DNA from: Cenarchaeum sp.
GTDB lineage: Archaea > Thermoproteota > Nitrososphaeria > Nitrososphaerales > Nitrosopumilaceae
Assembly (NCBI GenBank): GCA_963693095.2
Contig: OY843768.1
Location: 1,792,001 to 1,856,000 of the forward strand
Direction of reading: 5' to 3'
Length of the DNA stretch: 64,000 nucleotides
The translations under genes and the position numbers were made by a program. The notes under the pieces were generated by a model, which had not been told where the DNA came from, searched no databases, and was given only the letters and a program-made list of their open reading frames with translations. Position 1 is the stretch's first letter. Each line of letters starts with the position of its first letter. Below, one piece after another: positions 3,736 through 63,811 of the stretch.

Positions 3736-3856
3736 GGCGATATGAGGTCAGCATCACTGCCCGCTCATGTTCATCTAGCCATCACCGTATCGAGCCGATC
3801 AGCAGGATCCACGCCTATTTGATCAAATGGACAGCAAGGTGCTGGCCTCATACGCC
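3736..3856. repeat. ~120-bp imperfect inverted-repeat element, homologous to 23920-24032
   Basis: Arms GGCG(A)TATGAGGTCAGCATC and GGTGCTGGCCTCATACGCC. Loop motif AGGATCCACGCCTAT is shared with the second copy in reverse orientation. Confidence 0.6.
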
Positions 3857-3891
3857 TAGTGCTGCGTGATTCCACACCATTTTAATCGCCC

Positions 3892-6716: not shown

Positions 6717-6776
6717 TGTGACACGCCGCGCACACGTGCGCAAATAATAAGCAATGCATGCAGGCGCGAACCTTGG

Positions 6777-7187: not shown

Positions 7188-7284
7188 CGGCGAGGCGGCC
7201 AAATGCGTGGTATATAATCATATTACGCGCGCTGCGCACACGGATCCCCCAATGGCAGCCGTCGCCCCCCTTGCAGGGCCTGCG

Positions 7285-27733: not shown

Positions 27734-27798
27734 CGGCCAGGGTCACCGCACACGTGAAACGCCATGACTTTTTAGCCACTGTCGCCACACGCGCCACC

Positions 27799-34100: not shown

Positions 34101-34193
34101 TTTTGAAAACTTGTGTGTGATGATCGTTTTTCATTACCGTCAGATCTTCTATGAACGTCCCTCGACTAGAATAGCATCATGCTGGGAGGAAGG

Positions 34194-35387
34194 TCATCTA
34201 TCCGACGTGCGTATGTGCTCGAGTGAGCTTACAGCCAGCTCTAGCGCCTTGCGCACATTCGAGCTGTCTATGCGTAGCCTGCACTCTGACTTGCGGGACA
34301 GGACAAACGGCTTTAGCCGCCTTGCCCCCTTCGGGAGTGTGGCGTTCTCTGGGGCCAGAAAGACTAGGTCAAGCCACCCCTTTCCCACGGCCAGCGCGGC
34401 AAACGCACGTTTTCTTGACTCCTCGCCATCACAAAAGTACAACCATGCTGACTCGAATGTAACAGCACCCGTCTCAGCTATATCATTTGCAACTGATCTG
34501 GCCAATGAGCGCACTGGTGGGTTTGCGCGATTCAGTGATCCAGACCAAGTTGCAGGTTTACGGCCTGCGTTATTCCAGCTCTTCCTGGGCTTGACCGCGT
34601 CGACCTCCGTCTTTTTCTTGGACGCATAGCCCATAGCTAGGCAACTGAGCCTGTCTGTAATTATGGGCATAGTTTTTTCCAATTCTTCATAAAAATCACC
34701 CTCTTCGAATCCTAACACGCACACATTTCTCTTTTTATTGTCTAAAGTCCAGTCAATATTCTCAAACGATTCTATCATTACTCGTTCTATGTTTTTGCGA
34801 ATATTATCGCTGCTGAACCGCTCTGCGGTTAATATTGCTGCATATGCAAATTCCTTGTGCTTTGTCCACATGCCAATTCGAACTAGAGCTTCGCTTGTTT
34901 CACCAATATACACTTTTTTGTCTTCTGGGTTTACAATTAACACATATACACACGGGAAATTATCCTTTGAAAATCTTTTTGAGAATACTTTTTCTAGAGC
35001 TTCCCTGAGTGCAGTTTTACGGCAAAATATGCCCTCTATTCGGTCATTTATTTTGAGGTGATAATATCCGCCCCCACTAATGTCTACAAACTTTTCGGTA
35101 TATTGGTATGGTATGGGACGAATATCGGCATTTTGCCTTTCGGCATCTTGGCTTGTAATATTCATCGTTGGCTTGTGTGTATTCTTTAGTTCATACACTC
35201 CTGCTGACACGCGTACAAATCTGCCGGGAGCTTTTATCATGTATGCCCCTACCGTGGATGACGGGGTCTTGCCACCAAGTTTTGCCAACTTGCGCTTCTG
35301 AATCACCTCTGTGATGTCTTTACAGTTTGAGGCCCCTCGTTCTTTGAGAACCGCCACTATTGCGTCTTCGAGTTTCATCTGTTTCAC
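34194..35387 (-). CDS. HARE-HTH + GIY-YIG nuclease + C-terminal DUF5655-like fusion
   Basis: AIVAVLKE...GKTPSSTV (HARE-HTH) and CVYVL...VYIGET...R (GIY-YIG). Confidence 0.7.
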   Translation of the reverse strand: MKQMKLEDAIVAVLKERGASNCKDITEVIQKRKLAKLGGKTPSSTVGAYMIKAPGRFVRVSAGVYELKNTHKPTMNITSQDAERQNADIRPIPYQYTEKFVDISGGGYYHLKINDRIEGIFCRKTALREALEKVFSKRFSKDNFPCVYVLIVNPEDKKVYIGETSEALVRIGMWTKHKEFAYAAILTAERFSSDNIRKNIERVMIESFENIDWTLDNKKRNVCVLGFEEGDFYEELEKTMPIITDRLSCLAMGYASKKKTEVDAVKPRKSWNNAGRKPATWSGSLNRANPPVRSLARSVANDIAETGAVTFESAWLYFCDGEESRKRAFAALAVGKGWLDLVFLAPENATLPKGARRLKPFVLSRKSECRLRIDSSNVRKALELAVSSLEHIRTSDR

Positions 35388-35555
35388 AATGCCTAGGCAT
35401 AATACTAATAAATCTGCCGCTTGGTGCTACATATAATCTATGGCTGAAACACCACGCACAGCTCACACGGTGGCTTTTCGCCGGATCGGGTCATACAACA
35501 TAGATTATACATAGGAAAAGTTTGCTGTTGCCTCTACACGTACAACCAAATGCTC

Positions 35556-36218
35556 TCACGTGCTGATTGCATATTTGTCAAGTTCGGTTCTTGATTTTGA
35601 AACTTGCGGATAACATTGTGCAACCAGACTCCAGTAGCGTTTTGAATGATTTCTAATTTTTATGTGACATAGCTCGTGCACAATTACATAATCTATGAGG
35701 TGTCGTGGAAGTGCAAGAAGTTTTGCATTTAGGTTGATAGTGTGGTTTTTAGTTGCGCTACCCCATCGACTTTTATGTTTTTTAATATTGATCTGACTTG
35801 GTTTTATTCCAATTTTCTTGCTGATTATGGATGTTCTTTGTGGGAGATATGTTTGTGCTTTTTTATAAATCCAATCTTGGTAGTATTGTTCGATCAATCG
35901 TGATGTAATTTTATTCTTTGATGTTCTATACATAAATTGTCTGTTTTTAAATTCAAACATATCTTCTCCAGCACAAATGTGTATGGGATATTGATGTCCA
36001 AGATATGATTTAAATTTGATAGATCCTTGTTGGTTTTTGTCTAAGCTATTTTGTATTGTTTTGTATTTTTTTGTAATGCGTGGATTCAGCTTCACGATCA
36101 TATCTCTAATCTCACGTTCAGATTTCGTCGCCGGGACTATAACACGTATTTCATTATGGCTTATCTGAACCTCTGATGTCATTTTGCGTTTGGTCTTTAT
36201 AATTGTGCATTTGACCAT
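35556..36218 (-). CDS. YgjP/DUF45 zinc metallopeptidase-like protein linked to Type I R-M
   Basis: SRWGS, DYVIVHELCH and NHSKRYW motifs. Lies directly downstream of hsdR. Confidence 0.88.
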   Translation of the reverse strand: MVKCTIIKTKRKMTSEVQISHNEIRVIVPATKSEREIRDMIVKLNPRITKKYKTIQNSLDKNQQGSIKFKSYLGHQYPIHICAGEDMFEFKNRQFMYRTSKNKITSRLIEQYYQDWIYKKAQTYLPQRTSIISKKIGIKPSQINIKKHKSRWGSATKNHTINLNAKLLALPRHLIDYVIVHELCHIKIRNHSKRYWSLVAQCYPQVSKSRTELDKYAIST

Positions 36219-36237
36219 ACGGTTGTTTAAGTTAATG

Positions 36238-39222
36238 CTATTGCGCATAGTGATTTTTCACCAAATCTCTTATTTTCTCTAACGCGGAATCTATGTCTGT
36301 GCCAACTTGTTTCTCTTTTTGAAGCATTTCGTAAATGTCTTTTTGGATATCTTTATCAATTGTGGGTTTGTCTGGCCAATCGATAATTTGCGTATAGGGG
36401 ATTAGTTGTTCAAACAGCTTTATTGATAGATTAACACTTGCTTCTTTTCCCACGATTGGCATCATCACATTGTATATTGCAAATTCGAATGGTGTTGCTT
36501 CATAACTTCCAAACACGTCTTTGATCACTTTTTCACGGTTCACAGCATCGTTGTAAATGTCGACAAGTTCATCTAAATATAGCTCTAAATTTTCTATTCT
36601 GCGCATATTTTCATCTCTGATGATCTTTTCTAATCGTTCTTTTAGTGATTCAGCATATGTCGGATCTGTAGCCCATATTTCTTTAATCACTATTCTAATC
36701 CTATTTTTTAATAGTGCTGCTCGAGCAGCTTTAGATTCAATTTTATTATTTATAATATCTAGAAAATGTTTGTTTATTATCTGTTGCTGATTAATCAAAA
36801 TCTCTATATCTCCCGCCACAATGTGTTTATTAATTATATCTTTAATCTTTTCTCCATACAATTTCATATAGACGTCATGTCTTCCATAATACGTTGCAAG
36901 CCAACGAAGGCATCTTGCCATGAGTCTCCAGTTATCAATATAAGAAATAGCATTTTTATCAGGCAATGCAGCATTTAAAATGTTTAAAAATTTTCGAAAA
37001 TCGCTTTCAAACTTGGCTCTTTTTTCTGAATTTTCAAATGCTATTATGACAGTATTATGATTTTTGTAGTTAATTTTTTCTAGATGTTTCATTGCTATTT
37101 TACAGGCCACATCTAGATCTGCATATATCTTGCCAAGTGGCACAAGCGCATCAACGATATCCATACTATCAAAAGCTAGAAATGCTTTGTGCAATTCTTG
37201 TGTTACTCCATAGTAATCAACTATTATACCATGAGTTTTTTCTGTTGTGTATGGCCGGTTTACTCTTGCTATTGCTTGTAGTAAGTTATGATCGCGCAAT
37301 CCTTTATCCAGATACAACGCCTGACAGATTGGCGCATCATATCCTACCAGCAACATATCCACAACAATCAAGATCTTAGTTGGGTCATCGGAACGCTTGA
37401 ATTTCTCTGCTGTTATTCCACACTCTTCTTTTGTTAGATGGTGCACATTCCAACTCTGCCCGTCTTGGTCGTATCCTTCATAATCGCTCATTATGATCGT
37501 GGATTTTGGAGAATTGGCTATGCTGTCTAACGCTTTTTTATATAATACCGCTGCAGCTCTTGACGATGTGACTAACATAGCTTTACACCCATTGGGTTTT
37601 ATGTATTCTGTATAGTGTTTAACTATATCATTCGCGATCATTTCTATGCGATGTGGTGCTTCGGCCAGTGAATTTTTTGTCACATATTTTTGTTTAACTA
37701 TTTTTCTTGTGTCTTCATCACAATCAGCAAAAACGTGTTCGAATAACTCGTCAATGTTATCATACCCGTCAACATACACTTTAGGCAAACGCCCGTCATA
37801 CGTTATGGGCAATGTTGTCTTGTCGGCCTGCGATTCTCTAAATCCATACTTGTCAATCAATGGTCCAAATATATCAAATGTGCTTTTATCTTGCCTATCA
37901 ATTGGGGTTCCCGTAAACGCATAAAATATTCCATTTGGTAACGATGCTCGCATATTTGCTGCCTTTATCCTAAATTGACTTCTGTGTGCTTCGTCTACGA
38001 GGCAGAGCACGCGTTCTTTAATGCAGATGCCTACACCGTCAAACTTATCAATAACCGTCATGATCGTCTTTCCTCTTGGGTTTTTGAGCAACTCTGCAAG
38101 ATCTTTTTTACTGGATGCTCTGTGTGGGTTGGCAAATCCATAATTTTTAAATGTGTTGGAAATCTGTCGATCTAGCTGGGTTCTATCAGTAATAACAACG
38201 ATTGGAATGTTTGCAAATTTTCGTTTTGCTAGTATTGCAAGCCAGACCATTGACAATGATTTTCCTGATCCTTGTGTGTGCCACACTACGCCTCCTTTGC
38301 TCTTATCGTGTGTGTGAATACGCTCAATCGCTTTTGTGACAGCTCGTAATTGTGGATATCTTGCCACAATTTTAATTTCTTTATTGTTTTTTGTATCATA
38401 CATTACGAAATTTTGTAGAGTGTGTAATAAAATACTTTTTGATAAAAGACTCCCAATCAAAATTTCCTGTTCTCTAGCTTGCCCATTTAATTCCTTTAGT
38501 TCATTTTTTGTATAAGGATATCCATCAGACCATGGCGTATAATGATTTATCTCCGTTTCAATCGTACCCACTCTGGCAATGTCTCCACAGGTTGCAACTA
38601 AGAGGTGATTATAGTAAAAAAGTTGTTTATGACCCTGTGTTGTATTTTGATACTTGCGTAAATTATCCATAAATGCCTTTTCAATTGGATCAGGTATTGA
38701 TGGTGCCTTACATTCTATAACTACCAGAGGAATTCCATTTACAAAAATGACAATATCTGGAAAAATGGAGCGTTTATACCCGTCTACTCTAAACTGATTT
38801 GTGACAAGGAAATTATTATTTTCTGGATTATCAAAATCAAAAAAGTTAATGCGTATTGATGTACTAACACCATTTGTTTTTCTCTTAATCGTGACGGGAA
38901 TTGTATCATTTGTTTGTGACCAACCTACTAGTTTTGCATGGATTTTACGATTTGTTGTTACTGGAGTATCTGATGATTTGTTTTCTTTAAGTTGTTTCAC
39001 CGCTTCATCAATTTCTTCGTCACTGATTCCGGGATTTAATTTTTCTAGTGCTGTATGTAAACGTGTATGCAATAACACATCTCGGTAGTCGATCCTTTCT
39101 TCCTTGTTCAGCTCTGATCTTGATTTATACTCGTAGCCCATTGCCACTAGTTGCCTTAGAGCTGGCAGCTCTACTAAGCTCCCCTCCTCGCCGCCATCGA
39201 CGTCATACTCTCCTTGAACCAC
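36238..39222 (-). CDS. hsdR: Type I restriction endonuclease subunit R
   Basis: PDIVIFVNGIPLVVIECK, HTQGSGKS, DEAHRSQ, FTGTP and LLQAIARVNR. Confidence 0.96.
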   Translation of the reverse strand: MVQGEYDVDGGEEGSLVELPALRQLVAMGYEYKSRSELNKEERIDYRDVLLHTRLHTALEKLNPGISDEEIDEAVKQLKENKSSDTPVTTNRKIHAKLVGWSQTNDTIPVTIKRKTNGVSTSIRINFFDFDNPENNNFLVTNQFRVDGYKRSIFPDIVIFVNGIPLVVIECKAPSIPDPIEKAFMDNLRKYQNTTQGHKQLFYYNHLLVATCGDIARVGTIETEINHYTPWSDGYPYTKNELKELNGQAREQEILIGSLLSKSILLHTLQNFVMYDTKNNKEIKIVARYPQLRAVTKAIERIHTHDKSKGGVVWHTQGSGKSLSMVWLAILAKRKFANIPIVVITDRTQLDRQISNTFKNYGFANPHRASSKKDLAELLKNPRGKTIMTVIDKFDGVGICIKERVLCLVDEAHRSQFRIKAANMRASLPNGIFYAFTGTPIDRQDKSTFDIFGPLIDKYGFRESQADKTTLPITYDGRLPKVYVDGYDNIDELFEHVFADCDEDTRKIVKQKYVTKNSLAEAPHRIEMIANDIVKHYTEYIKPNGCKAMLVTSSRAAAVLYKKALDSIANSPKSTIIMSDYEGYDQDGQSWNVHHLTKEECGITAEKFKRSDDPTKILIVVDMLLVGYDAPICQALYLDKGLRDHNLLQAIARVNRPYTTEKTHGIIVDYYGVTQELHKAFLAFDSMDIVDALVPLGKIYADLDVACKIAMKHLEKINYKNHNTVIIAFENSEKRAKFESDFRKFLNILNAALPDKNAISYIDNWRLMARCLRWLATYYGRHDVYMKLYGEKIKDIINKHIVAGDIEILINQQQIINKHFLDIINNKIESKAARAALLKNRIRIVIKEIWATDPTYAESLKERLEKIIRDENMRRIENLELYLDELVDIYNDAVNREKVIKDVFGSYEATPFEFAIYNVMMPIVGKEASVNLSIKLFEQLIPYTQIIDWPDKPTIDKDIQKDIYEMLQKEKQVGTDIDSALEKIRDLVKNHYAQ

Positions 39223-39709
39223 GCATCAAACCACCACATTTTCCTATATTAAGACTCGGCCTTTATTCATAGTTAAATGTGTGCCTGCAATGCCAATTGT
39301 CTCGGACAAAGGGCGAAGATACGACTTTGGTAGTTATCGTTCACAACAGCAAGCGGTTATTCCGTTGAAGCGCCAGCAGTCTGCCCTGTGCTCGAGAAGG
39401 CTCAAAATGGTTCCTGCTGTCGTCCGAGGTTTGGCGATTGCTCGAAGCACCAGATCTGCCGTAGGGCGTATGGGTGGATATTTCAGGATCGTGGCTTGCT
39501 GTCCGGCCAAACACTGTTCCTAACCTGAGACACCCTGTATTCGATATTGGGGGTATGTTGTGGATGTGTGCTACGCCAACTGTCCATTAGTACGTCGTTA
39601 GTTTTACCACACACCACTACACATAATACGCCGTTTGTTCGGCTTCCCCTGGGGCTTATTTAGTGACGGCAGTGTGATGTTTATAAAGAAGGGCTGTGGC
39701 GCTTGCGTC

Positions 39710-41191
39710 GTGAGCAAAGTCTCGTTAGACGATCTCCAACGTCATCTTTGGAAAGCTGCTGATATATTACGTGGTTCTCTTGACGCATCAGAGTTTCGTC
39801 AACCTATAATGACGATTTTGTTTTTAAAACGGCTTAACGACCAATTTGAAGAAAATATTGATTTATTGATCGCAAAGGGAAAATCCAAAAAAGATGCCAT
39901 GAAACATTTCAATCACAAGTTTTTTGTTCCGAGCAGTGCTCGTTGGGAAACGCTTGCTTCGGCCACATCTAATATTGGAGCTGTGATTAACAAGGCATGC
40001 AAAGACATAGAATCTAAAAATTCTAATCTTAAGGGAGTGTTATCAAATATTGATTATGCAGATCATAGAAAATATTCTAATACAAATCTTGCCCATCTTA
40101 TATCTCATTTCAATGAACCTCGTTTACGTAATGCTGATCTTGAAAAAGAAGATATTTTTGGAGATGCTTATGAATATCTATTAGAACAATTTGCCGATGC
40201 TACAAAAAAGAGAGGTGGTGAGTTTTTTACTCCACGAGAAGTGGTAAAGTTATTAGTCAACCTAGTTGATCCTAAAGAACGAATGAGAATTTGTGATCCT
40301 ACATGTGGTTCTGGCGGGATGCTTATATTATCAAGACGTTATGTTGAAAAACATGGTGGTAATCCGCGCAACATAACTTTACATGGTCAAGAATCTAACC
40401 ACAGCAATTTATCTATGTGTAAAATGAATATGGTTTTACATGGCATTGCCGATTTCAGAATTGAACATGGTGACGTTTTGACTGATCCTCAATTACTTAA
40501 ACATAACAAACTTGATACGTATCATAAAGTATTGGCGAATTTTCCATTTTCTATGGATTGGCCTCACACAATGCCTGATCCATATGGACGATTCAAATAT
40601 GGGCGCCCTCCTGCAAAAAATAAAGCTGATTTTGCTTTTATTCAACATATGCTCTCCCAGTTACGCTCTGACGGACAGGCTGCAATTATCTGTTCACAGG
40701 GAGTTCTTTTTCGAAGTGGTGTTGAAAAACAAATTAGATCTGGTATGATTAACGATGATATTATTGAGGGCGTCATAGCATTACCTGAAAAACTATTTTT
40801 TGGTACCGGGATTCCGGCCTGTGTATTATTGTTAAATAAAGCAAAGCCGAAACGACATAAACATACGGTTATTTTCATTTCTGCCACAGATGATCGTCTT
40901 GAAGAATCCACTAGGAACAAGCTCCGTCCTCAAGATATTATAAAAATTGTTAATGCTTATAATAATTATATTGACATTGATCGCTACTGTCATATTGCCG
41001 ATCTGGCCGAAATTCAAGATAATGATTATAATCTAAATGTGCCCAGATATGTTGATACTACACCACCTGAAACTCCAGTTGACATTCAAACCGTTATTAA
41101 TAAATTACATCAATTAAAACATCAACGTGCTAAACTTGAATCTAAAACTATTGATGATTTACGTATGCTGAAATTTAAAATCTCAAAGTGA
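39710..41191 (+). CDS. hsdM: Type I methyltransferase subunit M
   Basis: LWKAADILRGS, GEFFTPREV, DPTCGSGG and motif IV variant NFPF. TTTATAAA at 39680-39687 supports the GTG start. Confidence 0.95.
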   Translation: MSKVSLDDLQRHLWKAADILRGSLDASEFRQPIMTILFLKRLNDQFEENIDLLIAKGKSKKDAMKHFNHKFFVPSSARWETLASATSNIGAVINKACKDIESKNSNLKGVLSNIDYADHRKYSNTNLAHLISHFNEPRLRNADLEKEDIFGDAYEYLLEQFADATKKRGGEFFTPREVVKLLVNLVDPKERMRICDPTCGSGGMLILSRRYVEKHGGNPRNITLHGQESNHSNLSMCKMNMVLHGIADFRIEHGDVLTDPQLLKHNKLDTYHKVLANFPFSMDWPHTMPDPYGRFKYGRPPAKNKADFAFIQHMLSQLRSDGQAAIICSQGVLFRSGVEKQIRSGMINDDIIEGVIALPEKLFFGTGIPACVLLLNKAKPKRHKHTVIFISATDDRLEESTRNKLRPQDIIKIVNAYNNYIDIDRYCHIADLAEIQDNDYNLNVPRYVDTTPPETPVDIQTVINKLHQLKHQRAKLESKTIDDLRMLKFKISK

Positions 41192-41192
41192 T

Positions 41193-42404
41193 GTGTTTAT
41201 GCTTACATCTGATATTTCAATTTGGCCTTCATTTCCGCTTTCTGCAGTGTGTAAAGTAAATACAGACACTCGTACACCTTCGTCAATTTACGTAGGAATT
41301 GAACATATTATTCCCAACACTAATAGCCTCAACGGTTATGGAAATATAGCGAATTTTAAAACTTCTCGCATTTTTCAATCAGGTAATCTGCTATATGCTA
41401 AACTTGGACCGGCATCTAATAAAATCTGGCTTGCAAATCACAGTGGGCATTGCTCCACTGATATTATTCCTCTCTCCCTCATATCAAAATTGTTTGTTCC
41501 TAAATTTTTGTTATATGTTCTTTCTCACACACGTTTTATTCATCATGCTATTTCAACATCATCTGGCACAATCATGCCACGAACTAGTTGGAATAATATT
41601 AAAAATTTTCATATTCCTGCCCCTCCAATTCAAGAACAACGTCGCATCGCGTCAATTCTGGCTAATATTGACGCACTAATCGAGAACGTGGAGGAAACTA
41701 TGTCAAGCTATGGAAAACTGAAACAAGGTTTGATGCAGCAGTTATTCACAGTGGGTGTAGGTCATTCACAATATCAGACAGTACGTGTTCAGTTTAGCAA
41801 ACAATCAACAATTCCAAAATCTTGGATTATAGAATCATTATCGTCATTCGGAAAAATTATTGGAGGCGGAACGCCCAGTACAAAAAATAAAGAATATTGG
41901 AACGGTGACGTATTATGGGCCACTCCTTCGGATATTACTGAATTAAAATCAGTATTTATAAACAACACAAAAAGAACAATTACAGAAAAAGGACTGAAAA
42001 AGAGTGCGGCAAAGCTTCTCCCCCCACATTCAATATTAATAACAACACGAGCGACAATTGGGGCGATGGCCATCAATACAAGACCAATGGCCACTAATCA
42101 GGGATTTCACAGCATATGCTGCAATTCACATTACGTACCGTCATTTATATTTTATTTAATAATGCACCATAATTCAAAATTATTAAGATATGCAGACGGA
42201 ACAACATTTTTAGAAGTGGGAAAAACTGATCTTGAAAAAATCAGAATTGCGTTACCACCAAAAAAAGCAGAACAGCGCAAGATTGCGTCAATTCTGTCAG
42301 GAGTTGATGCAATATTAGAAAATTATTGTTCATACAAGAACGAATTAGAACAACTTAAACAAGGGCTCATGCAACAGCTCCTTACCGGCAAAATGCGAAT
42401 ATAA
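41193..42404 (+). CDS. hsdS: Type I specificity subunit S (TRD1 + TRD2), co-transcribed with hsdM
   Basis: Two TRDs, each followed by PP..EQR.IASIL...LKQGLMQQL conserved helices. Confidence 0.95.
   Translation: MFMLTSDISIWPSFPLSAVCKVNTDTRTPSSIYVGIEHIIPNTNSLNGYGNIANFKTSRIFQSGNLLYAKLGPASNKIWLANHSGHCSTDIIPLSLISKLFVPKFLLYVLSHTRFIHHAISTSSGTIMPRTSWNNIKNFHIPAPPIQEQRRIASILANIDALIENVEETMSSYGKLKQGLMQQLFTVGVGHSQYQTVRVQFSKQSTIPKSWIIESLSSFGKIIGGGTPSTKNKEYWNGDVLWATPSDITELKSVFINNTKRTITEKGLKKSAAKLLPPHSILITTRATIGAMAINTRPMATNQGFHSICCNSHYVPSFIFYLIMHHNSKLLRYADGTTFLEVGKTDLEKIRIALPPKKAEQRKIASILSGVDAILENYCSYKNELEQLKQGLMQQLLTGKMRI
41649..41750 (+). repeat. IR1: 102-bp perfect inverted repeat with 45078-45179
   Basis: GCGTCAATTCTGGCTAAT...CAGTTATTCACA matches its reverse complement at 45078-45179 base for base. 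Confidence 0.92.
42267..42300 (+). repeat. IR2: 34-bp inverted repeat with 43451-43484 (1 mismatch); 30 bp also match 45168-45197
   Basis: GCAGAACAGCGCAAGATTGCGTCAATTCTGTCAG. Confidence 0.88.
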
Positions 42405-42406
42405 CT

Positions 42407-43336
42407 TTAAATTTCTAACGAATGCATTACTTTTCTAAATTCTTGGAAACACTGGTCAATAGTGGGTGTTAGATATATGCCATCAAGGCCATTTTTATGC
42501 CCCATTAATTTTTCAGCAATGTTATAATTGACTTGATTATCAAGTTTTAACGTGGTGTTAAAAAATTTACGAAAACCATGATCAACTTGAACATCATAAC
42601 GCAGTTTATTTTTAATTCTTTTAACTGCGCTTTTATTGACATGACGTGCTATTACTGATCGAGCCCCTGACCATTGTAATGGTCGTACATCATGTACTTT
42701 CTTCATACTAAATAAATTACGAAACAGGGGAGACGCGTTAGTCAGATTTTCTCCATGCCTAACACGTTCAGCAACATAACAACGTAGTGCCGTTGTAGCT
42801 TGAGGAGTTAAAAATGACCAATATTCATCAACCGTCCCTGCATAATTTGTTATGCCCATACAACCCTCTGGCATTTTGATAGTGTGACCAAATTGTAATG
42901 GGTGATCAAAGATACCAATTCTGACTCCTGTTGACGCAAGAAATAAAATTAAAGCTCTATCCCTACTGTTCGTAGCCGTATTCATAATTTGTTGAATTTC
43001 AGAACGAGTCCAGCATCGTAATTTGATTGGCTTAAGTTTTGATGGATACATTTTATGAATAAGATCCCAATCAAGTTGAATCTGATTCATGACAAAAAAA
43101 TGTTTAAGGCCTAAAAATTTAGTTGGCAATGAATTTGGATTTATTGTATTTTTTAAATAAATTAAGTAATCTTCGACATAAATCTGCAGTTGTTTATTTT
43201 GAATTGTTATTAATTCATCGCTGTGTTTTATATTAATAAATGACATAAATGATTTTAGATGAGACACATAATTATGTTTTGTATATTTTGACTTTATAGA
43301 CTCTTCAAACCGCATCCAGCTTCGTTGTCTTGACAT
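42407..43336 (-). CDS. tyrosine recombinase/integrase
   Basis: RDRALILFLASTGVR, HGFRK and LMGH...Y: the catalytic R-H-R-H-Y set is intact. Confidence 0.92.
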   Translation of the reverse strand: MSRQRSWMRFEESIKSKYTKHNYVSHLKSFMSFINIKHSDELITIQNKQLQIYVEDYLIYLKNTINPNSLPTKFLGLKHFFVMNQIQLDWDLIHKMYPSKLKPIKLRCWTRSEIQQIMNTATNSRDRALILFLASTGVRIGIFDHPLQFGHTIKMPEGCMGITNYAGTVDEYWSFLTPQATTALRCYVAERVRHGENLTNASPLFRNLFSMKKVHDVRPLQWSGARSVIARHVNKSAVKRIKNKLRYDVQVDHGFRKFFNTTLKLDNQVNYNIAEKLMGHKNGLDGIYLTPTIDQCFQEFRKVMHSLEI

Positions 43337-43400
43337 TTCTAAATTCCTTTTGTTCGAATTAATATTTTTAGTAATATGTTAAAAAATATAGTCATTAATA

Positions 43401-45725
43401 CTAATTTCTATTGCTAAAAATATTCATTTTATTAAGATATGACGCAATTTCTGACAGAATTGACGCAATCTTGCGCTGGTCTGCTAAAGGCGGAACAAGA
43501 ATTTTCAATTTTGAAAATTGTTTGGCATTAATATTGGGTTGTACTCCTTGAGTATGCTCTGATTTAACCCATGACCAATACATATATACTCACGAGCTAA
43601 AGTTCGTGTGACCTTCCACGACCTTCCTGTTCAGGTATGCGTAGATGTTCAGGTTGAACCGCTTGGTCCTGAGGTACTCGCCGACCGCGATCCTCAGCTC
43701 GTCCAGGGTTCGTGGTTGCCCCGGGACCCTGACGTCCCTCTTGAGTATGCGCCACGTCCCCTCGATGGCGCTTAGCTGCGGGGATCCCACCGGCAGCTCG
43801 ATGAGCTTGATCTCGCCGTTGGCGCGCAGCAGGTTCTTGACCGCCCCCGCGCGGTGCTGGGGAGCCCTGTCGACGATGACGGCGATCTTGCCGAACTTCC
43901 CGTGCAGCTCCGCAAGGTACTGCGCGAACGTGTCCGCGTTGAACTTGTCGCGCGTCCGGAACGCCTGCCGCCCGTCCTCGGCGATCGCCCCGTACACGAC
44001 GATCCGCTCGTGGCTCCCGGTGTACGGCTCGTAGACGGGCACCGTGCGCGGCGTCCAGTGCGTCGCCATGCCCCCGGCGTCGTTCACGATGATCGACTCG
44101 TCCTGCACCAGCATCGTGTATCCCGCGCGCGCCAGGCGTGGCGCCGCCCCCGCAAGGCGCCGCTGCCAGCTGCGGACGGCGGACGCGCTCGCCCTGTTGA
44201 CGTGGGCCTTTCGCGGCCTCTTGCGCGAGAGGCCGAACTCGCGCATGAGCCTCCTCACGCTGGCTATGTGGAACAGTGTCCCCGCCGCCCCGGCGATCCT
44301 GTCGCGGACCGCGGCCGGGGTCGTGGGGGATCCCGACGCGTCGGCGAGGATCCCGTCGAGCGCCGTTCGCGGCACGGCCAGCGGCCTCCCGGAGCGCGGG
44401 AGGTCGCGGAGGGCGGGAAGCCCGCCCTCCCGGTACCGCGCAACCCACTTGCCGACCCACCCCGGGCACCGCATCAGCGTGTCCGCCGTGTCCTCGTGCG
44501 TCATGCCCATGTTGACCACGCAGTGCACGGCGAGCATCCTGTCCCTCACGTGCCCGCTCTTCTCGCTGTGGTGCGCGTCCCTCAGCTCCTCCCGCTTCCG
44601 GTCGTCCATGCCCTGGCGCGGGAGGGGGCGATCAATATAGCTGCGGGGTCGGGGAAACTTGATCATCTATACGAACTTTAGCTCGTGAGTATAGCTATGT
44701 GTGTATTGTTCAAGAAATCTTGGTTCCATTTTTTGAGGATTGATTTGAAATCTAATTAAATAACTAGCAAATATGCAAACGCCAAATTTTTCTTTAAACA
44801 ACAACGTTCTTCCAACACTTCCCGTTCTTGCAAATAGTAAATCGTTATGTTTTAGAACATATTTTTCATTACCTGTCAATTTTGTAGATACCTTACTCTC
44901 ATCACTAAGAGCTCCCTCATCGTTTATGTCTGTAATTCGAATATATCTGGGCAAATTAATGTTATATGGCATTGCCGGGTCAGAAACTCCATACTGTGAT
45001 TTCCCAATAGTGAGTTCTGATAACTGCGCGGTCTTCCATTGGACTGTTTTCTGGTAGTTTGAATGATCCACACCCATTGTGAATAACTGCTGCATCAAAC
45101 CTTGTTTCAGTTTTCCATAGCTTGACATAGTTTCCTCCACGTTCTCGATTAGTGCGTCAATATTAGCCAGAATTGACGCAATCTTGCGCTGTTCTGCTAA
45201 AGGCGGAACAAGAATTTTCAATTTTGAAAATTGTTTGGCATTAATATTGGGTTGTACTCCTTGAGTATGCTCTGATTTAACCCATGACCAATACATATAG
45301 CTATGTGTGTATTGTTCAAGAAATCTTGGTTCCATTTTTTGAGGATTGATTTGAAATCTAATTAAATAACTAGCAAATATGCAAACGCCAAATTTTTCTT
45401 TAAACAACAACGTTCTTCCAACACTTCCCGTTCTTGCAAATAGTAAATCGTTATGTTTTAGAACATACTTTTCATTACCTGTCAATTTTGTAGATACCTT
45501 ACTCTCATCACTAAGAGCTCCCTCATCGTTTATGTCTGTAATTCGAATATATCTGGGCAAATTAATGTTATATGGCATTGCAGGGTCAGAAACTCCATAC
45601 TGTGATTTCCCAATAGTGAGTTCTGATAACTGCGCGGTCTTCCATTGGACTGTTTTCTGATATCGATTTCTTATTTGTTTTTTTATGCGCGGCACTTGTC
45701 GTTTGTTAGGCTGTTGGGACACCAT
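43401..45725 (-). pseudogene. hsdS: second hsdS with two near-identical TRDs; distal TRD interrupted by IS630 and C-terminal conserved region truncated
   Basis: The QWKTAQLSEL...PPLA(E/D)QRKIASIL unit occurs twice. Removing the IS restores THSY|MYWSW. Confidence 0.88.
43587..44691 (-). mobile_element. IS630-family element (1105 bp); transposase ~44609-43590
   Basis: Perfect 21-bp terminal inverted repeats TACTCACGAGCTAAAGTTCGT. TA duplication confirmed against the intact TRD copy at ~45290. DDE motif intact. Confidence 0.96.
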
Positions 45726-45812
45726 CTTGTAACTTTCAACCCTCGACTCTAATATGCTAATATTAACTTATACTGATGCGCAAAATTTGTTTGGTGATCC
45801 TTCTAAATCTTG

Positions 45813-46556
45813 CTAAAAGTCATCTACTTTACGTACAATTTGCACACCAGAGTAAGAAGAATGCTTGTGAACGATGCCCCTAGTTGCGCCCAAGTATAGA
45901 GAGGCCATGCCATGATTGAGGTGCGCCCTGGGGTTCTCGGGGTTTATGCGAATCGCCACCTTGGCGTTCTTGACGGCCTCCTCGGCTCTGTCCACCGCGC
46001 TGAGGATCACTGCGCGATCAGAGTGCCCATCATCATTGTCGCCGTCCAGCTCGATTGCGTGCCCCGTGGCCTCAGGTGCCTCGGCGTTGCGCCCAAGATT
46101 AGAGGGCACGCCCGAGATAGGGGTGCAAGTTGTGCTCTCCGGATCTATCTCGATTCTGCGCCTGTACTCCCCGACTGCCTCCTCGCGCCGACCGCGCATG
46201 AGCAGCGCCGTCCCCCTCCTAGAATGGACACTCGCGCCTCCCTGCCCAGCTCGATCGCGCGATCAAGTGCGCCAATGGCCTCCTCACAGCGACCGAACTC
46301 GAGGAGGATCGTGCCCCTGCAATGGTGCGCCTCGGCGACGTTCGCGTGTTTTGCGAGGGCCATGCCCATGACATAGTGACTCTCCATGTAACCGCGTCCT
46401 TTGTAATGCTTTACCTCTTGCTTCTGCGCAGCACCTCGGCCTTGTCTAGGCGGTAGACCATATTGCCTGGTTCTCTTGCAAGTTGGCGATCGATATGCCA
46501 GAGTTCGTCATCATCCATTAGGCGTATTATGCTGGTTTCAATGTTACCTGCGCCGT
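45813..46556 (-). pseudogene. frameshifted TPR gene remnant
   Basis: Fragments align to the 50909 TPR gene (HCRG.ILLE.GRCEEAI, AIELDGDN.DGHS.RA) across frames. Possibly the lost 3' part of 46557-47753. Confidence 0.7.
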
Positions 46557-47753
46557 CTACCTGCGCCTCGTTCTCGGCCGTGGGGTGTCTGTACTTATTA
46601 CCTCCATCATCGGATCGCTCTCAATGGAATGTGCAAACGAGTCACACGCCTCAGACTCACGTCCCAGTTTTGCCAACGCCACGCCCTTGATATAACATGC
46701 CCGCGCATACTCCATCCGTATGTTGTCATATGGTCCCCATCGCATATAGCTCTCATCGAGCCTGTTTTCGCCTTCTAGCGCCCGCACGCAATCGTCTAGC
46801 GCCTCATCATATTGTCCAAGATTAATGAGCGCATAGCATCTATCGAGAGAAAAACTAAATTCGTCATCATCATCTGTGTATCGCCACACCTCTGCTTCAA
46901 AGCTTGCGCGTGCGGCGCTGTGGTTTCCCTGCGTGTGCAGCCTGACTCCTTCTCTCATGCCCTTAAAAATGGCTGATATGACTATCGCTGGATACTTGGC
47001 ATACACGCGATTTGCTACCGTCTTGTCTGAGGACAGTTCAGCATACATATGACGAAGCTCCCTGGGCAAATTAGGTCGTGAATCCTGTAGTGACATGCTC
47101 ACGTAACCCGGGTGTGTGCCGTTACGCAGATCTTCTAGCACTATGTCACACAGGGATTCTGGCCTCCATTCACCCCCCACCTCACTCGTATGTGACTGAT
47201 GATCCCACTGTGATTCCCCCTCCCACGTTCTCTCGTATATGATATCTAGCTCGCATGAGTGACGTACCGCCCAATCCATGGCATGTAGGTGGCCTCCCTT
47301 CCTTGACCTTCCCGCAATGTAGCACATTTGAGTCTCGATATTTCCTGGTGCGATCTTGAGCGCTTTCCCGGCCATTTCTAAAGCTAGCTCACGTTTCTCA
47401 GATACTGATAATGGCGCTGCATATTCGTCTCCATATTCGTCTGCACCATAGAATTCTTCTTGAGACGTTGTATGCTCCTCACCATCCAGGTAAATCCTGG
47501 CGGCCAGCTCGTATGGAGCAGCAATGTCGGGGTTTAGCTTTATCGCATCTTCACACGCCTTGATGGCCACAATATATTCCCCGTGCCAGCGTGCAACCTC
47601 TGCCATGTCTAGATGGGCAAACACATTTTTGGGATTTCTTGAAATTTCGTCCTTGCATAGCTTGAAGTCATCTTCCCACCCGTTGTAACTCACAAAGCCC
47701 CACGCATTTTGGTTAATGCCCCGCATAACTGCCAAATCGCCTTCCAGCTCCAT
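46557..47753 (-). CDS. divergent TPR-containing protein
   Basis: TPR units at both ends (AIKLNPD, ALINLGQYDEAL, KGVALAKLGR). Confidence 0.7.
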   Translation of the reverse strand: MELEGDLAVMRGINQNAWGFVSYNGWEDDFKLCKDEISRNPKNVFAHLDMAEVARWHGEYIVAIKACEDAIKLNPDIAAPYELAARIYLDGEEHTTSQEEFYGADEYGDEYAAPLSVSEKRELALEMAGKALKIAPGNIETQMCYIAGRSRKGGHLHAMDWAVRHSCELDIIYERTWEGESQWDHQSHTSEVGGEWRPESLCDIVLEDLRNGTHPGYVSMSLQDSRPNLPRELRHMYAELSSDKTVANRVYAKYPAIVISAIFKGMREGVRLHTQGNHSAARASFEAEVWRYTDDDDEFSFSLDRCYALINLGQYDEALDDCVRALEGENRLDESYMRWGPYDNIRMEYARACYIKGVALAKLGRESEACDSFAHSIESDPMMEVISTDTPRPRTRRR

Positions 47754-47866
47754 TTATTAACATAGCTATGCGCTGACCACAACTCCCACGTCTATTGCCC
47801 ACTACACAAAAGCTTCACAACATTTTGTCCACAATGCTTAACAATAACCACACACCATCCCAAACC

Positions 47867-50830
47867 ATGACCCCGTGGTTCGGTCATGGATTTCTCGGAA
47901 AGCCAAAGCGCAAGTTCCTCAACGGCCAGCCGGATCCAGAGTATTGGGGGCCAGGATTCCATGAAAACCTCCGCGAGCCGCCGACTCGCAAGGGCGTCGT
48001 AGTCCACGAAATCTCACCAGTCCAGGACAGGTACTCTACGATACTCGCATCGGCCTCGCCACGCTCACTAGAGATAGTAAAGAATCCAGGAGACGAGGGA
48101 ATCCACATACTCGCGTCGGCCGCACCCGATGACGAGTCATATCCGGCCGAGACTGGCCATGACTGCACGCCAGTGGATGCGGCAGCACCAAAATGGATAC
48201 ATGACGAACGTGCGCGCGCATTTGACGTAGAGCTCACAACACAGCTAAACTTTGCGCCAGTCACCCCGCCAGCCCACGCGCTAAACATGCTCGCGCGAAC
48301 CATCGCCCCCAGGGTGTCAGACGGCATGTGGATACTGGCAGTCTTTGAGAACCGTACTGACATACTCGCGAGGCTAGCGCTACGTGCGCATGACGCAATA
48401 TCAGAGGCGCAGGAAATGGAGGGCGACATGGGCCTGACGGCGCGCACGCTAGAGCCCCACTATGCGGCGCGCGCCGGCTCGCCGCTAGCGGCCCTCTCGG
48501 TCAGGGGCGCGTTCGTGTCTGACTCGCCGGCGGCCATACTAGACTCACTAGACGCCACATTTGGCGCCATATCCATAGAGTGCGACACGCTCACCACGTG
48601 CTCCTATGACACTAAACGCTTCATCCCGTGGCTCGAGTCGCGCCAGCTTGCATCCGAGGGCGCATACGATTTACTTGACCAAAACTGCGCAATGTGGAAG
48701 GATCCCCGCCTTGGCTTTGGGCGCGACATGACCCCAATCCTGGTCCTCACGCCATCCGAGCTCTCTGCCCTCCTGCGCATCCCAGACGATCCGGCACTCG
48801 ACATTCGGTACATGCGGCGCAGGCGCGGGGGCGCAAAGGAGGACGTTCTTGGCCACGACCTCGCCTCAAACGACTATTCGCGCCTCACGGTCTCGAGTGC
48901 CTCGATATCGCCCGAGCACATGCTGGCCCACACGTACCTTCTTGGCGCAACGGGCACGGGCAAGACGAGCCTCATGCGCTCATTTGCGCACCACATCAGC
49001 ACGCCAAAGCAGGGCTACCTCCCCCCCGCGCTCATCATCATCGACGTAAAGGACGATGACGGACCGGCGTATTTCACGCAGCTAGACCCCGAGGTGATCG
49101 CCTCGGGCCGCGTGAGATACATTGACATAAACCACACCGACTTTGCGATAAACCCCCTCGAGCTGCCGCCGCACACAGAGTCCACGCGCGACCTAGTCGT
49201 CTCGCGCAAGGTGGGCCAGGTCGCCTCGTTCCTAAAGGAGGTCTACAGCCAGCGTACCCTCATGGTCCAAGTCGAGCGCCTGATCAGGCTCCTCCTCACG
49301 CACCTCTACTCGCGCTCGTCCTCGCCCACGATGGCCGACCTTTACAACATCATCACGACGAACCTCAATGACCCGACGGCGGCGGCCAGGCGCATGGCGA
49401 CGGCCTCGCCCGAGCTCTCACAAGCCCTCTCCTCGCTAGCAAAGATGCCGCGAGACTCGTGGATACCGCTCATCAACAGGATCGAGCCGTTCGCAGTCGA
49501 CGCATACATGAAAAAGAGGTTCTCGGTGCGCCACGGCACAGTCGACTTTGCAAAGATGCTAGAGCCCGGCCAGATCACGATAATTCGCGCATCAGAGGCC
49601 GAGACGCCCCAGCACGCGCACCCAATAATACCCACGATTATATCGCTTGGGATATGGAACGCGCTGCTCGCGCGCGCCGAGTCTCGAGCCGAGCGCACGC
49701 CTGTCATGCTCTTTCTTGACGAGTTCCACATGATGCGCGACGTCACGCTCCTAAAGTCAATGCTCTCGCGCGGGCGTTCACTGGGCCTGGGCCTGGTCCT
49801 CGCGCACCAAAACCTCTCACAGGTCGACCGGTCGCTCCTTGACACGATAATGGGCAACACGTCAACGCACATACACGGCAGGGTCCTGGGGGTCGACGCG
49901 CGCACGATCGCAACGGTGATGGATCCGGCCCATGCGGCCGAGCTCACAGACCAGATCAGCGGCCTGCCAGACCACTCGTTTCTCATAAGCAGGGTCCCGC
50001 CCGCCGGCGCCGAGCGCGCGCCACCGGTGCGATTTGAGGCCCACGCCCCGCCGCCGTGCGTCATGGATCCTGCCCAGCTAGAGGCGTTCCAGGAGAAAAT
50101 GTCCGAGCTCCACCAGCCCGACCGCACTGCTGACTCTACGCCGCTTGACGCGTGGAGGTCAGAGCTCCTCGTCGAGCTGCCCACCCGGCTCGAGTGGCAC
50201 ATCATCATCGCGATGCGCCACGCCGGCTCTAGCACCGTGCCGCTAGCAAAGGGCGCGGTCCTCGCGGGCCTCATCAGGGAGCGCCACGCCGTCTCTAGCG
50301 CACTCTCCTCGATGGTGCGGCGCGGACTGGTCCAAAGGGTCTCATCAGTCAGGTGCGGCAGCGAGGAGCGCCCGACGCACGCGCTCACCGAGGCCTGCAA
50401 AAAGATGTACCTGCCCGAGTCCTTTGGCTCGATCGGAACAGCAAAGGGCATCGAGGAGGCAGCCAGGGCGGCCTTTGAGCACCATGTCTCACTGGGCCAC
50501 TTTGTCACAGTCGCCTCGCAGGGCAGGACGATCGACTCAAAGAACACAGTCGACATGATAGCGTATGACTATGAGACTGACAGCGCGCGCAGCGTCGAGG
50601 TCGAGTCTATAACGGAGGTAAAGAGCAACCCCGAGCACGTCATATTCAACATGACAAAGTGGGAGGACATGGGCTTTGTCGGCTGCGACACATGGTCTGC
50701 CAACCCCGCCGTCGTGAGCCTGCGCGAGAGGGTTCCCGAGCCGACGCGCATGGCAGTCACGTGCCATGTCCTGCAGGACGGCGAGTGGACAAGCCGCACG
50801 GCGGTCCAGGAAAAGATTGGGGGGACGTGA
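47867..50830 (+). CDS. HerA/VirD4(TraD)-like ATPase with C-terminal wHTH-like and PD-(D/E)XK-like domains
   Basis: HTYLLGATGTGKT Walker A, INPLE, FLDEFH Walker B and GRSLGLGLVLAHQNLSQ. C-terminal VDMIAYD...SVEVES. Confidence 0.8.
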   Translation: MTPWFGHGFLGKPKRKFLNGQPDPEYWGPGFHENLREPPTRKGVVVHEISPVQDRYSTILASASPRSLEIVKNPGDEGIHILASAAPDDESYPAETGHDCTPVDAAAPKWIHDERARAFDVELTTQLNFAPVTPPAHALNMLARTIAPRVSDGMWILAVFENRTDILARLALRAHDAISEAQEMEGDMGLTARTLEPHYAARAGSPLAALSVRGAFVSDSPAAILDSLDATFGAISIECDTLTTCSYDTKRFIPWLESRQLASEGAYDLLDQNCAMWKDPRLGFGRDMTPILVLTPSELSALLRIPDDPALDIRYMRRRRGGAKEDVLGHDLASNDYSRLTVSSASISPEHMLAHTYLLGATGTGKTSLMRSFAHHISTPKQGYLPPALIIIDVKDDDGPAYFTQLDPEVIASGRVRYIDINHTDFAINPLELPPHTESTRDLVVSRKVGQVASFLKEVYSQRTLMVQVERLIRLLLTHLYSRSSSPTMADLYNIITTNLNDPTAAARRMATASPELSQALSSLAKMPRDSWIPLINRIEPFAVDAYMKKRFSVRHGTVDFAKMLEPGQITIIRASEAETPQHAHPIIPTIISLGIWNALLARAESRAERTPVMLFLDEFHMMRDVTLLKSMLSRGRSLGLGLVLAHQNLSQVDRSLLDTIMGNTSTHIHGRVLGVDARTIATVMDPAHAAELTDQISGLPDHSFLISRVPPAGAERAPPVRFEAHAPPPCVMDPAQLEAFQEKMSELHQPDRTADSTPLDAWRSELLVELPTRLEWHIIIAMRHAGSSTVPLAKGAVLAGLIRERHAVSSALSSMVRRGLVQRVSSVRCGSEERPTHALTEACKKMYLPESFGSIGTAKGIEEAARAAFEHHVSLGHFVTVASQGRTIDSKNTVDMIAYDYETDSARSVEVESITEVKSNPEHVIFNMTKWEDMGFVGCDTWSANPAVVSLRERVPEPTRMAVTCHVLQDGEWTSRTAVQEKIGGT

Positions 50831-63546: not shown

Positions 63547-63737
63547 GATGACGCCATGGCATGTTTTTGATATAATAATTATGCTCTTGAGTTGTGTGGC
63601 ATGGCAGCGCCGCTGATCCCACGACGTGCCATCCTGCAAGTGCTAGACAGCACGTTCTGCGTTCCTGCCGCAATGTGCCCACTGGCGCGACTTGGCCGCC
63701 TGTGGGCACCCATGCGCACATGCATGGTGAGTTGAGG

Positions 63738-63811
63738 CGGGTCTAGAGGGATTCGAACCCTCGACAGCCGGATTAAGAGTCCGGTGCTCTACCTGGCTGA
63801 GCCATAGACCC
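63738..63811 (-). tRNA. tRNA-Lys(CTT), intronless, CCA not encoded
   Basis: GGGTCTA/TAGACCC acceptor stem, CCGGA-CT-CTT-AA-TCCGG anticodon arm and GAGGG-TTCGAAT-CCCTC T arm. Confidence 0.97.

Follow-up and report, generated by a model that had tools for sequence, protein, structure and literature searches.

Can a Type I restriction-modification (R-M) locus in an archaeon change its own target specificity by inverting parts of its specificity genes? The question is raised by a stretch of 64,000 nucleotides (nt) from Cenarchaeum sp. (assembly GCA_963693095.2, contig OY843768.1, positions 1,792,001 to 1,856,000 of the forward strand), referred to here as the window, in which two hsdS genes of opposite orientation enclose a gene for a tyrosine recombinase. 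We put the probability at roughly two in three that the locus is an invertible hsdS shufflon, a switch of Type I R-M specificity of the bacterial "epigenetic inverton" kind, residing on an imported island of low guanine-cytosine (GC) content. The shufflon is real by its architecture and is partly disabled in this genome by a very recent insertion sequence (IS).

Architecture of the locus and predicted outcome of its inversions

The locus encodes a complete Type I set (hsdR, hsdM and hsdS) by Pfam and NCBIfam matches above cut-off, and the host genome has no other Type I system. The methyltransferase gene hsdM (39635-41191, + strand; 518 amino acids as listed, with a true start that may lie a few codons further in) carries Pfam HsdM_N and N6_Mtase and scores 264 bits on NCBIfam TIGR00497 (cut-off 243). 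The specificity gene linked to it, hsdS-A (41193-42404, +), matches Pfam Methylase_S in two stretches and comprises a first target recognition domain (TRD1, 41193-41648), a central conserved region, a second such domain (TRD2, 41751-42266) and a full C-terminal conserved region. Because its alignment with the M. jannaschii HsdS structure 1YF2 (E 4e-67) runs to the last residue, hsdS-A is a complete two-TRD HsdS. The restriction subunit is encoded by hsdR (36238-39222, -; 994 amino acids), with Pfam HSDR_N, SWI2_SNF2, T1R_D3-like and ResIII.

The second hsdS is inverted relative to hsdS-A and is found in two pieces. As interrupted by the IS, the hsdS-B open reading frame (ORF) occupies 44667-45725 (-; Methylase_S); its 5' part (44694-45725, -) encodes an N-terminal extension, TRD3a, a central conserved region and the first part of TRD3b, and a 3' piece of 60 codons (43401-43583, -; Methylase_S) encodes the end of TRD3b and a short, non-canonical C-terminal tail. 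The hsdS-B ATG is preceded, at 30-55 nt, by a stretch rich in AT that includes a TATA-like element. Between the two hsdS genes, within the innermost invertible segment, is the gene for a tyrosine recombinase of 309 amino acids (42407-43336, -; PF00589). An earlier, sequence-only reading of the window had described hsdS-A and hsdS-B as converging on an intact tyrosine recombinase, with the same TRD present twice in hsdS-B; coordinates and Pfam matches agree with the first statement, and the second is borne out by TRD3a and TRD3b being a 606-bp tandem duplication (99% identity over 300 nt).

Two nested pairs of inverted repeats join the hsdS genes, and both were found where that reading had placed them, at TRD boundaries. 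The outer pair, IR1, consists of 41649-41750 (+), in the hsdS-A central conserved region, and 45078-45179 (-), in that of hsdS-B, each arm identical to the reverse complement of the other at 102/102 positions. The inner pair, IR2 (42267-42300, +, and 43451-43484, -; 33/34 identity), has an exact core of 28 nt (42273-42300 / 43451-43478) and is placed where the C-terminal conserved region starts. These placements follow from the 1YF2 alignment and from the conserved-region motif IASIL..(I/V)DA. When 41000-46000 was shuffled 200 times, the longest exact inverted repeat was 11.6 nt on average and 15 nt at most. Beyond the perfect match of IR1 the arms are only ~86% identical over 176 nt, a contrast which argues for recent or continuing homogenisation.

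Inversion in silico at IR1, at IR2, or at both left all reading frames open, as had been predicted for the exchange of distal TRDs by IR1 and of full and short C-termini by IR2. The reference state yields an hsdM-linked product of 403 amino acids with TRD1-TRD2 and the full tail, and the IR2 flip turns this into TRD1-TRD2 with the short tail (385 amino acids). With the IS removed in silico, the IR1 flip gives TRD1-TRD3 with the short tail (375 amino acids) and the combined IR1 and IR2 flips give TRD1-TRD3 with the full tail (393 amino acids). Either single inversion appends the short tail of 9 residues, and the resulting forms are probably impaired. The double inversion returns both the recombinase and the proper C-terminal helix to their original places. 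A complete TRD1-TRD3 protein thus arises only from IR1 and IR2 jointly, so that the nested pair amounts to a device for cassette exchange, TRD2 for TRD3b. Of the four combinations originally listed (1-2, 1-3, 3-2 and 3-3), a complete 1-3 needs both inversions, and the reciprocal hsdS-B products 3-3 and 3-2 would matter only if hsdS-B is expressed by itself. A shift in coding-strand composition at IR1, offered earlier as a sign of a swapped segment, does exist (AT skew of -0.096 in TRD1 and +0.217 in TRD2) and has no bearing on inversion, because skew varies likewise between hsdM (0.006) and hsdR (0.197) of the same island and because a flipped coding segment retains its own coding strand.

The alternative cassette is at present broken. 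An insertion at 43585-44693 (-) splits TRD3b and is flanked by TA dinucleotides at 43585-43586 and 44692-44693. The element is 1105 bp long with perfect terminal inverted repeats of 23 bp and encodes a transposase (43590-44666, -; NF033545, 146 bits against a cut-off of 100); it thus shows each of the traits that define the IS630 family, namely a DDE transposase, terminal inverted repeats and TA target duplication. Removing the element and one TA in silico restores the exact TRD3a sequence, and the 3' piece then continues TRD3b. While the IS is present, either IR1-flipped state yields an hsdM-linked product truncated to 322 amino acids, and a complete HsdS comes from the current state only, in keeping with the earlier claim that the insertion disables the distal TRD3. 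The host genome contains 8 copies of this IS at ≥99.6% identity, all flanked by TA, and its GC content (58-74%) is host-like. One of these copies is 100% identical to the one in hsdS-B, and the insertion is therefore very recent. A further copy runs past the left end of the window (window 1-362), where it adjoins a PglX-like methyltransferase gene of 1083 amino acids (354-3605).

Recombinase, related loci and candidate recombination sites

The recombinase passes the Phage_integrase model PF00589 narrowly (27.7 bits, cut-off 27.1), and its best NCBIfam model, archaeal XerA NF040815, scores 53.5 bits, below the cut-off of 220. An alignment of 28 homologues shows no variation at R139, H253, R256, H280 and Y288. 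The AlphaFold model (mean predicted local distance difference test score, pLDDT, 76) has a two-domain, Xer/Cre-like form, and Foldseek matched it with archaeal XerA 5HXY (the best match in the PDB, E 1.7e-8), an integron integrase and Cre; as modelled, the protein is a simple two-domain tyrosine recombinase. A phmmer search against PDB sequences gave no match at E ≤ 0.01, and a profile search matched XerA only (E 0.0035). Against 72,556 plasmid records, tblastn returned no match at E ≤ 1e-3. In a PF00589 scan of the host genome this recombinase was the sole match, with no housekeeping Xer-type recombinase at E ≤ 0.01.

A protein search with the recombinase returned 276 matches at E ≤ 1e-5. When genome and metagenome contigs were searched, the single protein as query found no match in either, and an alignment query found matches in both. 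Relatives were then scanned in one genome per species, with 114 loci confirmed and 80 kept. By title, 78 of the 80 genome loci belong to Nitrososphaerota/Thaumarchaeota lineages, one to a "Thermoproteota archaeon" and one to a 3-kb contig binned as Hyphomicrobiaceae. According to jackhmmer annotation of the flanks, hsdS adjoins the recombinase in 21/80 genome loci and 3/80 metagenome loci. Among these 24, seven (L006, L009, L011, L020, L027, L029 and L046) repeat the layout of the window, with two inverted hsdS ORFs and inverted repeats bracketing the recombinase. The survey for the same layout that had been suggested from the sequence alone thus yielded seven other loci of Nitrosopumilaceae, from different species. 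Their repeats are usually nested as a central and a C-terminal pair, with an additional N-terminal pair in L006, and reach 99.5% identity over 189 nt in L020. Two further loci (L017 and L019) have two inverted hsdS genes that bracket hsdM instead. In all family-1 loci, as in the window, the hsdM-adjacent gene carries a conserved AYIQKN helix after the C-terminal site and the distal hsdS gene ends in an unrelated short tail.

A maximum-likelihood tree of 78 recombinases (6 of 84 rows, L046 among them, were dropped with ORFs below 260 amino acids) places the window recombinase in a clade with a Shimodaira-Hasegawa-like approximate likelihood ratio test (SH-aLRT) support of 99. Adjacency to hsdS was found for 22/33 members of this clade versus 2/45 recombinases outside it. 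Comparison among species also revealed rearrangements: between L026 and each of L016, L017, L020 and L027, the block with the recombinase has changed orientation with respect to the block of hsdS and hsdM, and a TRD cassette of the distal L006 gene matches the proximal L046 gene on the opposite strand. Such differences are consistent with shuffling, judging from sequence comparison, and are too tangled for proof. An hsdM block is 99.2% identical over 3430 nt between the Nitrosopumilus MAG loci L002 (1-3430) and L007 (979-4408), where the adjoining recombinases are only ~71% identical; the exchange of R-M modules seems to be separate from that of recombinases.

One member of the clade suggests a use beyond hsdS. 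In L028, a locus of a Nitrosopumilus MAG, an Eco57I/MmeI-like type IIG R-M gene (2304-5909, +) lies directly upstream of the recombinase (5977-6906, +) and is followed by an inverted ORF (6941-7804, -) that repeats the C-terminal part of the type IIG enzyme. The repeat (4984-5098 / 7870-7984) has 95.7% identity with ~100 nt exact, continuing at 77% over 759 nt, and the arrangement looks like a specificity switch for the type IIG enzyme. Among 30 hsdS-less loci longer than 9 kb, the recombinase is closely surrounded by a strong inverted repeat in L028 alone; the other repeats found were a long pair ~10 kb apart in L081, weak distant pairs in L013 and L018, and a 20-nt match in L078. Of five hsdS-less members of the clade that were inspected, the four besides L028 lie beside a DUF285 protein or housekeeping genes (L008, L012 and L018) or beside IS elements (L013).

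Distant relatives of the recombinase (38-50% identity) were recovered from metagenomes. About 40 of these 80 contigs (in the series L084-L161) end 130-300 nt upstream of the recombinase gene, and their starts hold differing neighbour genes; one possibility is a population-variable insertion edge. The idea that the wider family consists of tRNA integrases is unsupported, with tRNA genes in 0/40 of these end-of-contig loci and, among 20 genome loci, within the flanks of two and adjacent to the recombinase in neither.

In six loci of different species, each arm of the C-terminal repeat contains ATTGCRTCAATYCTGTCAGGAGTTGAYGCA, with flanks that diverge. This core encodes IASILSGVDA and forms a dyad of ATTGCRTCAA and its inverse with 12 nt between. 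In the window the corresponding dyads are GCGTCAAT-N10-ATTGACGC in the left arm of IR1 and ATTGCGTCAA-N12-TTGATGCAAT in the left arm of IR2. From inspection of the sequence we read the core as two arms of ~13 nt around a middle of 6 nt. The candidate sites are s1 (~41646-41677, +) at the left and s4 (~45151-45182, -) at the right arm of IR1, and s2 (42282-42313, +) at the left and s3 (~43438-43469, -) at the right arm of IR2. Sites s1 and s4 are identical. Site s2 is canonical, consisting of an arm, TGTCAG and an inverted arm in agreement with a 29-nt family pattern, and the right arm of s3 is degenerate. The 29-nt pattern occurs in 14/401 genomes of the family, representing 6/27 genera, and once per strand at 1.7-11.8 kb apart in five genomes; a reversed control gave no matches. 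In a second hsdS family (L020 and L027) the arms are similar, ATTGAATCAAT ... ATTGATGCAAT, and enclose another middle.

Sites at the two positions in the gene differ in their middle hexamer. In central sites it is TTTCGG, TTTCAG or TTGGCG among the relatives and TGGCTA in the window; among 21 C-terminal sites, 12 have TGTCAG, the hexamer also seen in the window, and 4 have TGTCGG. The leucine codon of the motif is CTG in 17/21 C-terminal sites and CTT in 12/16 central sites, compared with background frequencies of 7% and 18% among 1274 leucine codons of the same 37 ORFs. Since this class-specific choice is synonymous, selection on the protein cannot explain it. By manual count in L006, L011, L029, L046 and the window, partner sites share their hexamer in 9/10 pairs, and the central and C-terminal classes differ within all five loci. 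Rare variants likewise appear on both partners, namely TGTCGG (L011) and, in the codon that follows TGTCAG in L046, GGG in place of GGA. Heterospecific lox sites of Cre, which have the same binding arms and differing spacers, recombine only with their own kind; purely by analogy, the two hexamer classes would act in the same manner.

The mechanism we propose would begin with the XerA-like recombinase, encoded between convergent hsdS genes, recombining short dyad-symmetric sites that are written into the codons of the motif IASIL..(I/V)DA. Site s1 would pair with s4 (IR1) and s2 with s3 (IR2), and similar arms with differing hexamers (TGGCTA versus TGTCAG) should keep the exchanges in register. 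The two nested inversions together would swap the expressed TRD2 for TRD3b and retain the proper C-terminal helix. With TRD3b broken by the IS, switching would now offer the expressed hsdS only a single complete form and, as alternatives, defective ones. We infer from the sequence that the recombinase catalyses the flips, where strands would cross, that IR1 flips and that methylation would be affected.

Evidence for flipping and competing explanations

If the switch operates, both orientations might be expected in natural populations, and public sequencing runs were compared with the window as assembled k=31 contigs (runs X1, X4, X5 and X6 of eight listed). In X1, with ~190x depth at the locus, a contig of 1206 nt runs exactly from 42273 to 43478. 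Built from the reference alone, the k=31 graph of the whole genome gives instead a unitig at 42267-43509, its left break at 42267 being due to an exact repeat of 31 nt shared with hsdS-B. Once the IR2-inverted form is included, this unitig becomes 42273-43478 and the others stay as they were, matching the observed contigs, and the X1 contig ends correspond to two reciprocal recombinant junctions. This indirect evidence fits the presence of both IR2 orientations in the X1 sample. Adding the IR1-inverted form to the graph produces no change, so that k=31 contigs cannot judge IR1. Runs X5 and X6 contained scattered low-depth pieces only at the locus.

Several observations weigh against an operating switch. 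No joint or inverted junction was seen in the k=31 contigs of the four runs, and the X4 contig (~22-25x) starts at the reference-only position 42267. Run X1 is metagenome-sized (2.4 million contigs), and a mixture of strains or two-way gene conversion would look alike. Site s3 keeps its left arm and hexamer, but in the place of the inverted arm it has ATTGCGTCA again, as a direct repeat (KIAS ... EIAS), which may be the scar of an aberrant exchange; together with the IS-broken TRD3b, this means that the locus may be decaying in its host. The parsing of the core into 13-6-13 is a reading of the sequence, with the crossover point deduced from it, and the sharing of codons and hexamers between partners could also be explained by gene conversion in loci that are related. 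Within the clade, 11/33 recombinases have no hsdS in the available flanks, some of them being near housekeeping genes or IS elements, and the repeat of L028 is without ATTGCRTCAA arms, so the proposed site is not universal in the clade. Finally, the catalytic C-terminal segment of the modelled recombinase (residues 257-292) has pLDDT below 50.

Among the genes of the host genome (2.0 Mb in 2 contigs, 60.4% GC, 99.55% complete) are those for archaeal AmoA (389 bits) and an archaeal CCA-adding enzyme, and a search of genomes of the family found the related loci again in named Nitrosopumilus MAGs (L011, for instance). The host thus belongs to the ammonia-oxidising archaea, family Nitrosopumilaceae. 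Its R-M locus has a GC content of 28-38%, except for a 412-nt spacer of ~50% GC between hsdR and hsdM; related loci, in Nitrosopumilus-like genomes, have a median of 36%, and the 29-nt core pattern was not found in four other genomes of the host genus that were searched. The island was therefore most likely imported from a low-GC relative. The AT-rich island also includes a gene for a YgjP-like metallopeptidase (35556-36248, -; PF01863, 159 bits) that overlaps the end of hsdR, and a HARE-HTH protein gene (34194-35387) adjoins the island. The spacer between the divergent hsdR and hsdM (39223-39634) has no second copy in the genome, and no Rfam family reached gathering score in a scan of 34000-47000, spacer included.

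Elsewhere in the window, a low-GC gene for an Mrr-type restriction endonuclease (30451-31353, -) lies between two paralogous DUF4344 / Ig-like genes (27754-30285 and 31557-34100), which makes this a second foreign defence insert. A gene for a TrwB/TraG-like coupling ATPase is at 47795-50830, and TPR-repeat genes are abundant throughout.

The strongest competitor to a functional shufflon is that the system worked in its low-GC donor lineage and no longer switches, the identity of IR1 stemming from recent transfer or past conversion and the X1 pattern from strain variants or conversion tracts. This would accommodate the split TRD3b, the lost inverted arm of s3, the non-canonical short tail, the foreign composition of the island, the absence of the core pattern from the four searched congeners and the reference-only form in X4. 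However, the recombinase ORF is intact with all catalytic residues, the 102/102 match of IR1 against ~86% beyond it points to recent or continuing homogenisation, and the damage done by an IS with a 100% identical genomic copy must be very recent. Nor are X1 contig ends that fit reciprocal junctions expected from one-way conversion. We consider a system that has already fallen silent unlikely, at perhaps the odds of a single throw of a die.

Alternatively, the recombinase might be the integrase of the island or of another mobile element, and the hsdS repeats might invert by host homologous recombination between paralogous conserved regions. Outside the clade, 43/45 members of the wider family are not linked to R-M genes, the upstream ends of ~40/80 metagenome contigs suggest a variable insertion edge, the composition of the island is donor-like, and in S. 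pneumoniae spnIII recombination is reported, in part of the account in PMC6620402, to be independent of all known site-specific recombinases. An island integrase is expected at an edge, yet in seven other loci the innermost inverted repeat encloses the gene, with an hsdS on either side. That the recombinase might belong to an integrated element with att sites had been named at the outset as grounds for abandoning the shufflon; around the island we found no att-like direct repeat, only imperfect matches of 15-22 nt, and no tRNA gene nearby (the only one in the window is at 63736-63811). Furthermore, the one strong, close repeat among the 30 scanned hsdS-less loci is in L028, an in-clade type IIG locus; with 28 nt, the exact core of IR2 is a short target for homologous recombination, yet X1 suggests exchange there; and the dyad-symmetric core is conserved at synonymous positions. 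An integrase of this sort seems improbable to us. That no programmed rearrangement takes place, the convergent paralogous hsdS genes having met by chance and the repeats being ordinary HsdS conserved regions, which are alike in all members including the single-hsdS loci L004, L015 and L034, is hardly credible beside 102 nt of perfect DNA identity between genes with unrelated TRDs, the recurrence of the nested layout with its recombinase in seven loci, the class-specific choice of a single leucine codon and the agreement of the X1 contig ends with the inversion model.

Relation to known systems and significance

The sequence-only reading had named no characterised archaeal case, and this holds in part: none was found that had been studied by experiment, but predicted hsdS invertons of Euryarchaeota are already in print in the portion of PMC7672463 consulted. 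In the sections of that study (Huang et al. 2020, PMC7672463) on which we draw, four Euryarchaeota loci come from REBASE (one in invertase clade 2 and three in clade 5) and 11 from NCBI (all in clade 2, TvrR-like), the tables there holding no row for Thaumarchaeota or Nitrososphaerota. The same sections define invertase clades 1-6 by PsrA, TvrR, BfiA, EfiA, MfiA and HvsR, describe an NCBI search with six bacterial invertases, and name experiments on four bacteria. Other surveys touch archaea lightly. Chanin et al. (PMC10028968), in the part considered here, screened 42 archaeal long-read sets, reported 12 invertons and called archaeal invertons understudied; the main text of Atack et al. 2020 (PMC7394358) is without "archae" or "methano"; and archaea lie outside the scan of Milman et al. 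2023 (PMC9881135) as its consulted sections describe it. A 2024 review of archaeal R-M systems (PMC11033074) makes no mention of inversion, phase variation, shufflon or recombinase, and the phase-variable examples in the part of a 2026 review used here (PMC13076061) are bacterial. In the literature we found no experimentally characterised archaeal hsdS inverton and none for Nitrososphaerota, and the supplements of PMC7672463, PMC10028968 (Data S2) and PMC7394358 may list some.

Of the traits by which such switches are recognised, the window locus has Type I genes, an inverted second hsdS, repeats bounding the TRDs, a local recombinase and, in silico, alternative alleles in frame; for the presence of both orientations in a population, the X1 contig gives indirect evidence at IR2. 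The closest parallel is the SpnD39III/ivr (cod) locus of S. pneumoniae, which, in the passages of PMC7672463 that treat it, shares an hsdM-linked hsdS with inverted hsdS copies, repeats in conserved regions, a tyrosine recombinase (PsrA/CreX) within the locus and alternative in-frame TRD combinations. That system, as described there, is bacterial, experimentally proven and built on three hsdS genes. Compared by layout, the window differs in that TRD2 alone can be exchanged and that the cassette to replace it is broken. The Euryarchaeota invertons, in the same partial account (PMC7672463), have in common with the window archaeal Type I loci and an invertase beside hsdS; they fall in invertase clades shared with bacteria and were found with bacterial invertases as BLAST queries under stringent thresholds.

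Further bacterial systems rest on the same principle. The hsd loci of Mycoplasma pulmonis reportedly shuffle hsdS by site-specific inversion with HvsR. Phase-variable Type I R-M in Bacteroides fragilis likewise has hsdS shuffling by site-specific inversion with a dedicated recombinase, according to the part of PMC7641763 drawn on here. Both are bacterial and, by description, employ recombinases of other clades. The nearest solved fold and curated family is archaeal XerA (5HXY, 4A8E), which is also a two-domain recombinase acting on short dyad sites; the window recombinase differs from it in scoring 53.5 bits against a 220-bit cut-off and in being a low-GC foreign gene within an R-M locus. Its relatives are multi-copy in some genomes, and it is not the housekeeping enzyme of dimer resolution. 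With regard to the six clades of Huang et al. 2020, the evidence is indirect: 79/80 of our genome loci are archaeal, the plasmid records gave no match and the nearest curated family is XerA.

We also make a tentative proposal, to which we give somewhat less than even odds: that ammonia-oxidising archaea possess an XerA-like lineage of R-M invertases of their own, active in nature and of an origin independent of the bacterial hsdS invertases. Its dyad-symmetric sites would be embedded in the IASIL..VDA codons of HsdS, and the middle hexamer would serve as the address by which central and C-terminal exchanges stay separate. As part of the same proposal, these invertases would act on hsdS cassettes of Type I systems and, at one locus or more, on the C-terminal portion of an enzyme of type IIG.

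Phase-variable Type I R-M has been studied almost only in host-associated bacteria, and the window locus, together with the loci related to it, would carry the principle into Nitrososphaerota. These ammonia oxidisers live in oceans, soils and sponges, where virus pressure is high and genetics is scarce. It presents a compact and testable system, with a recombinase of 309 amino acids, a candidate site of ~32 bp and two address classes, and the recombinase could become a genetic tool for archaea. The locus is also a case of a low-GC defence island that entered a relative of 60% GC and was damaged at once by a resident IS. If the switch is active, heterogeneous methylomes and shifting restriction specificity would be relevant to strain variation, virus-host dynamics and epigenomes; and if the proposal of an independent archaeal lineage is true, it would mean phase-variable methylomes and a shifting defence against viruses in globally important nitrifiers.

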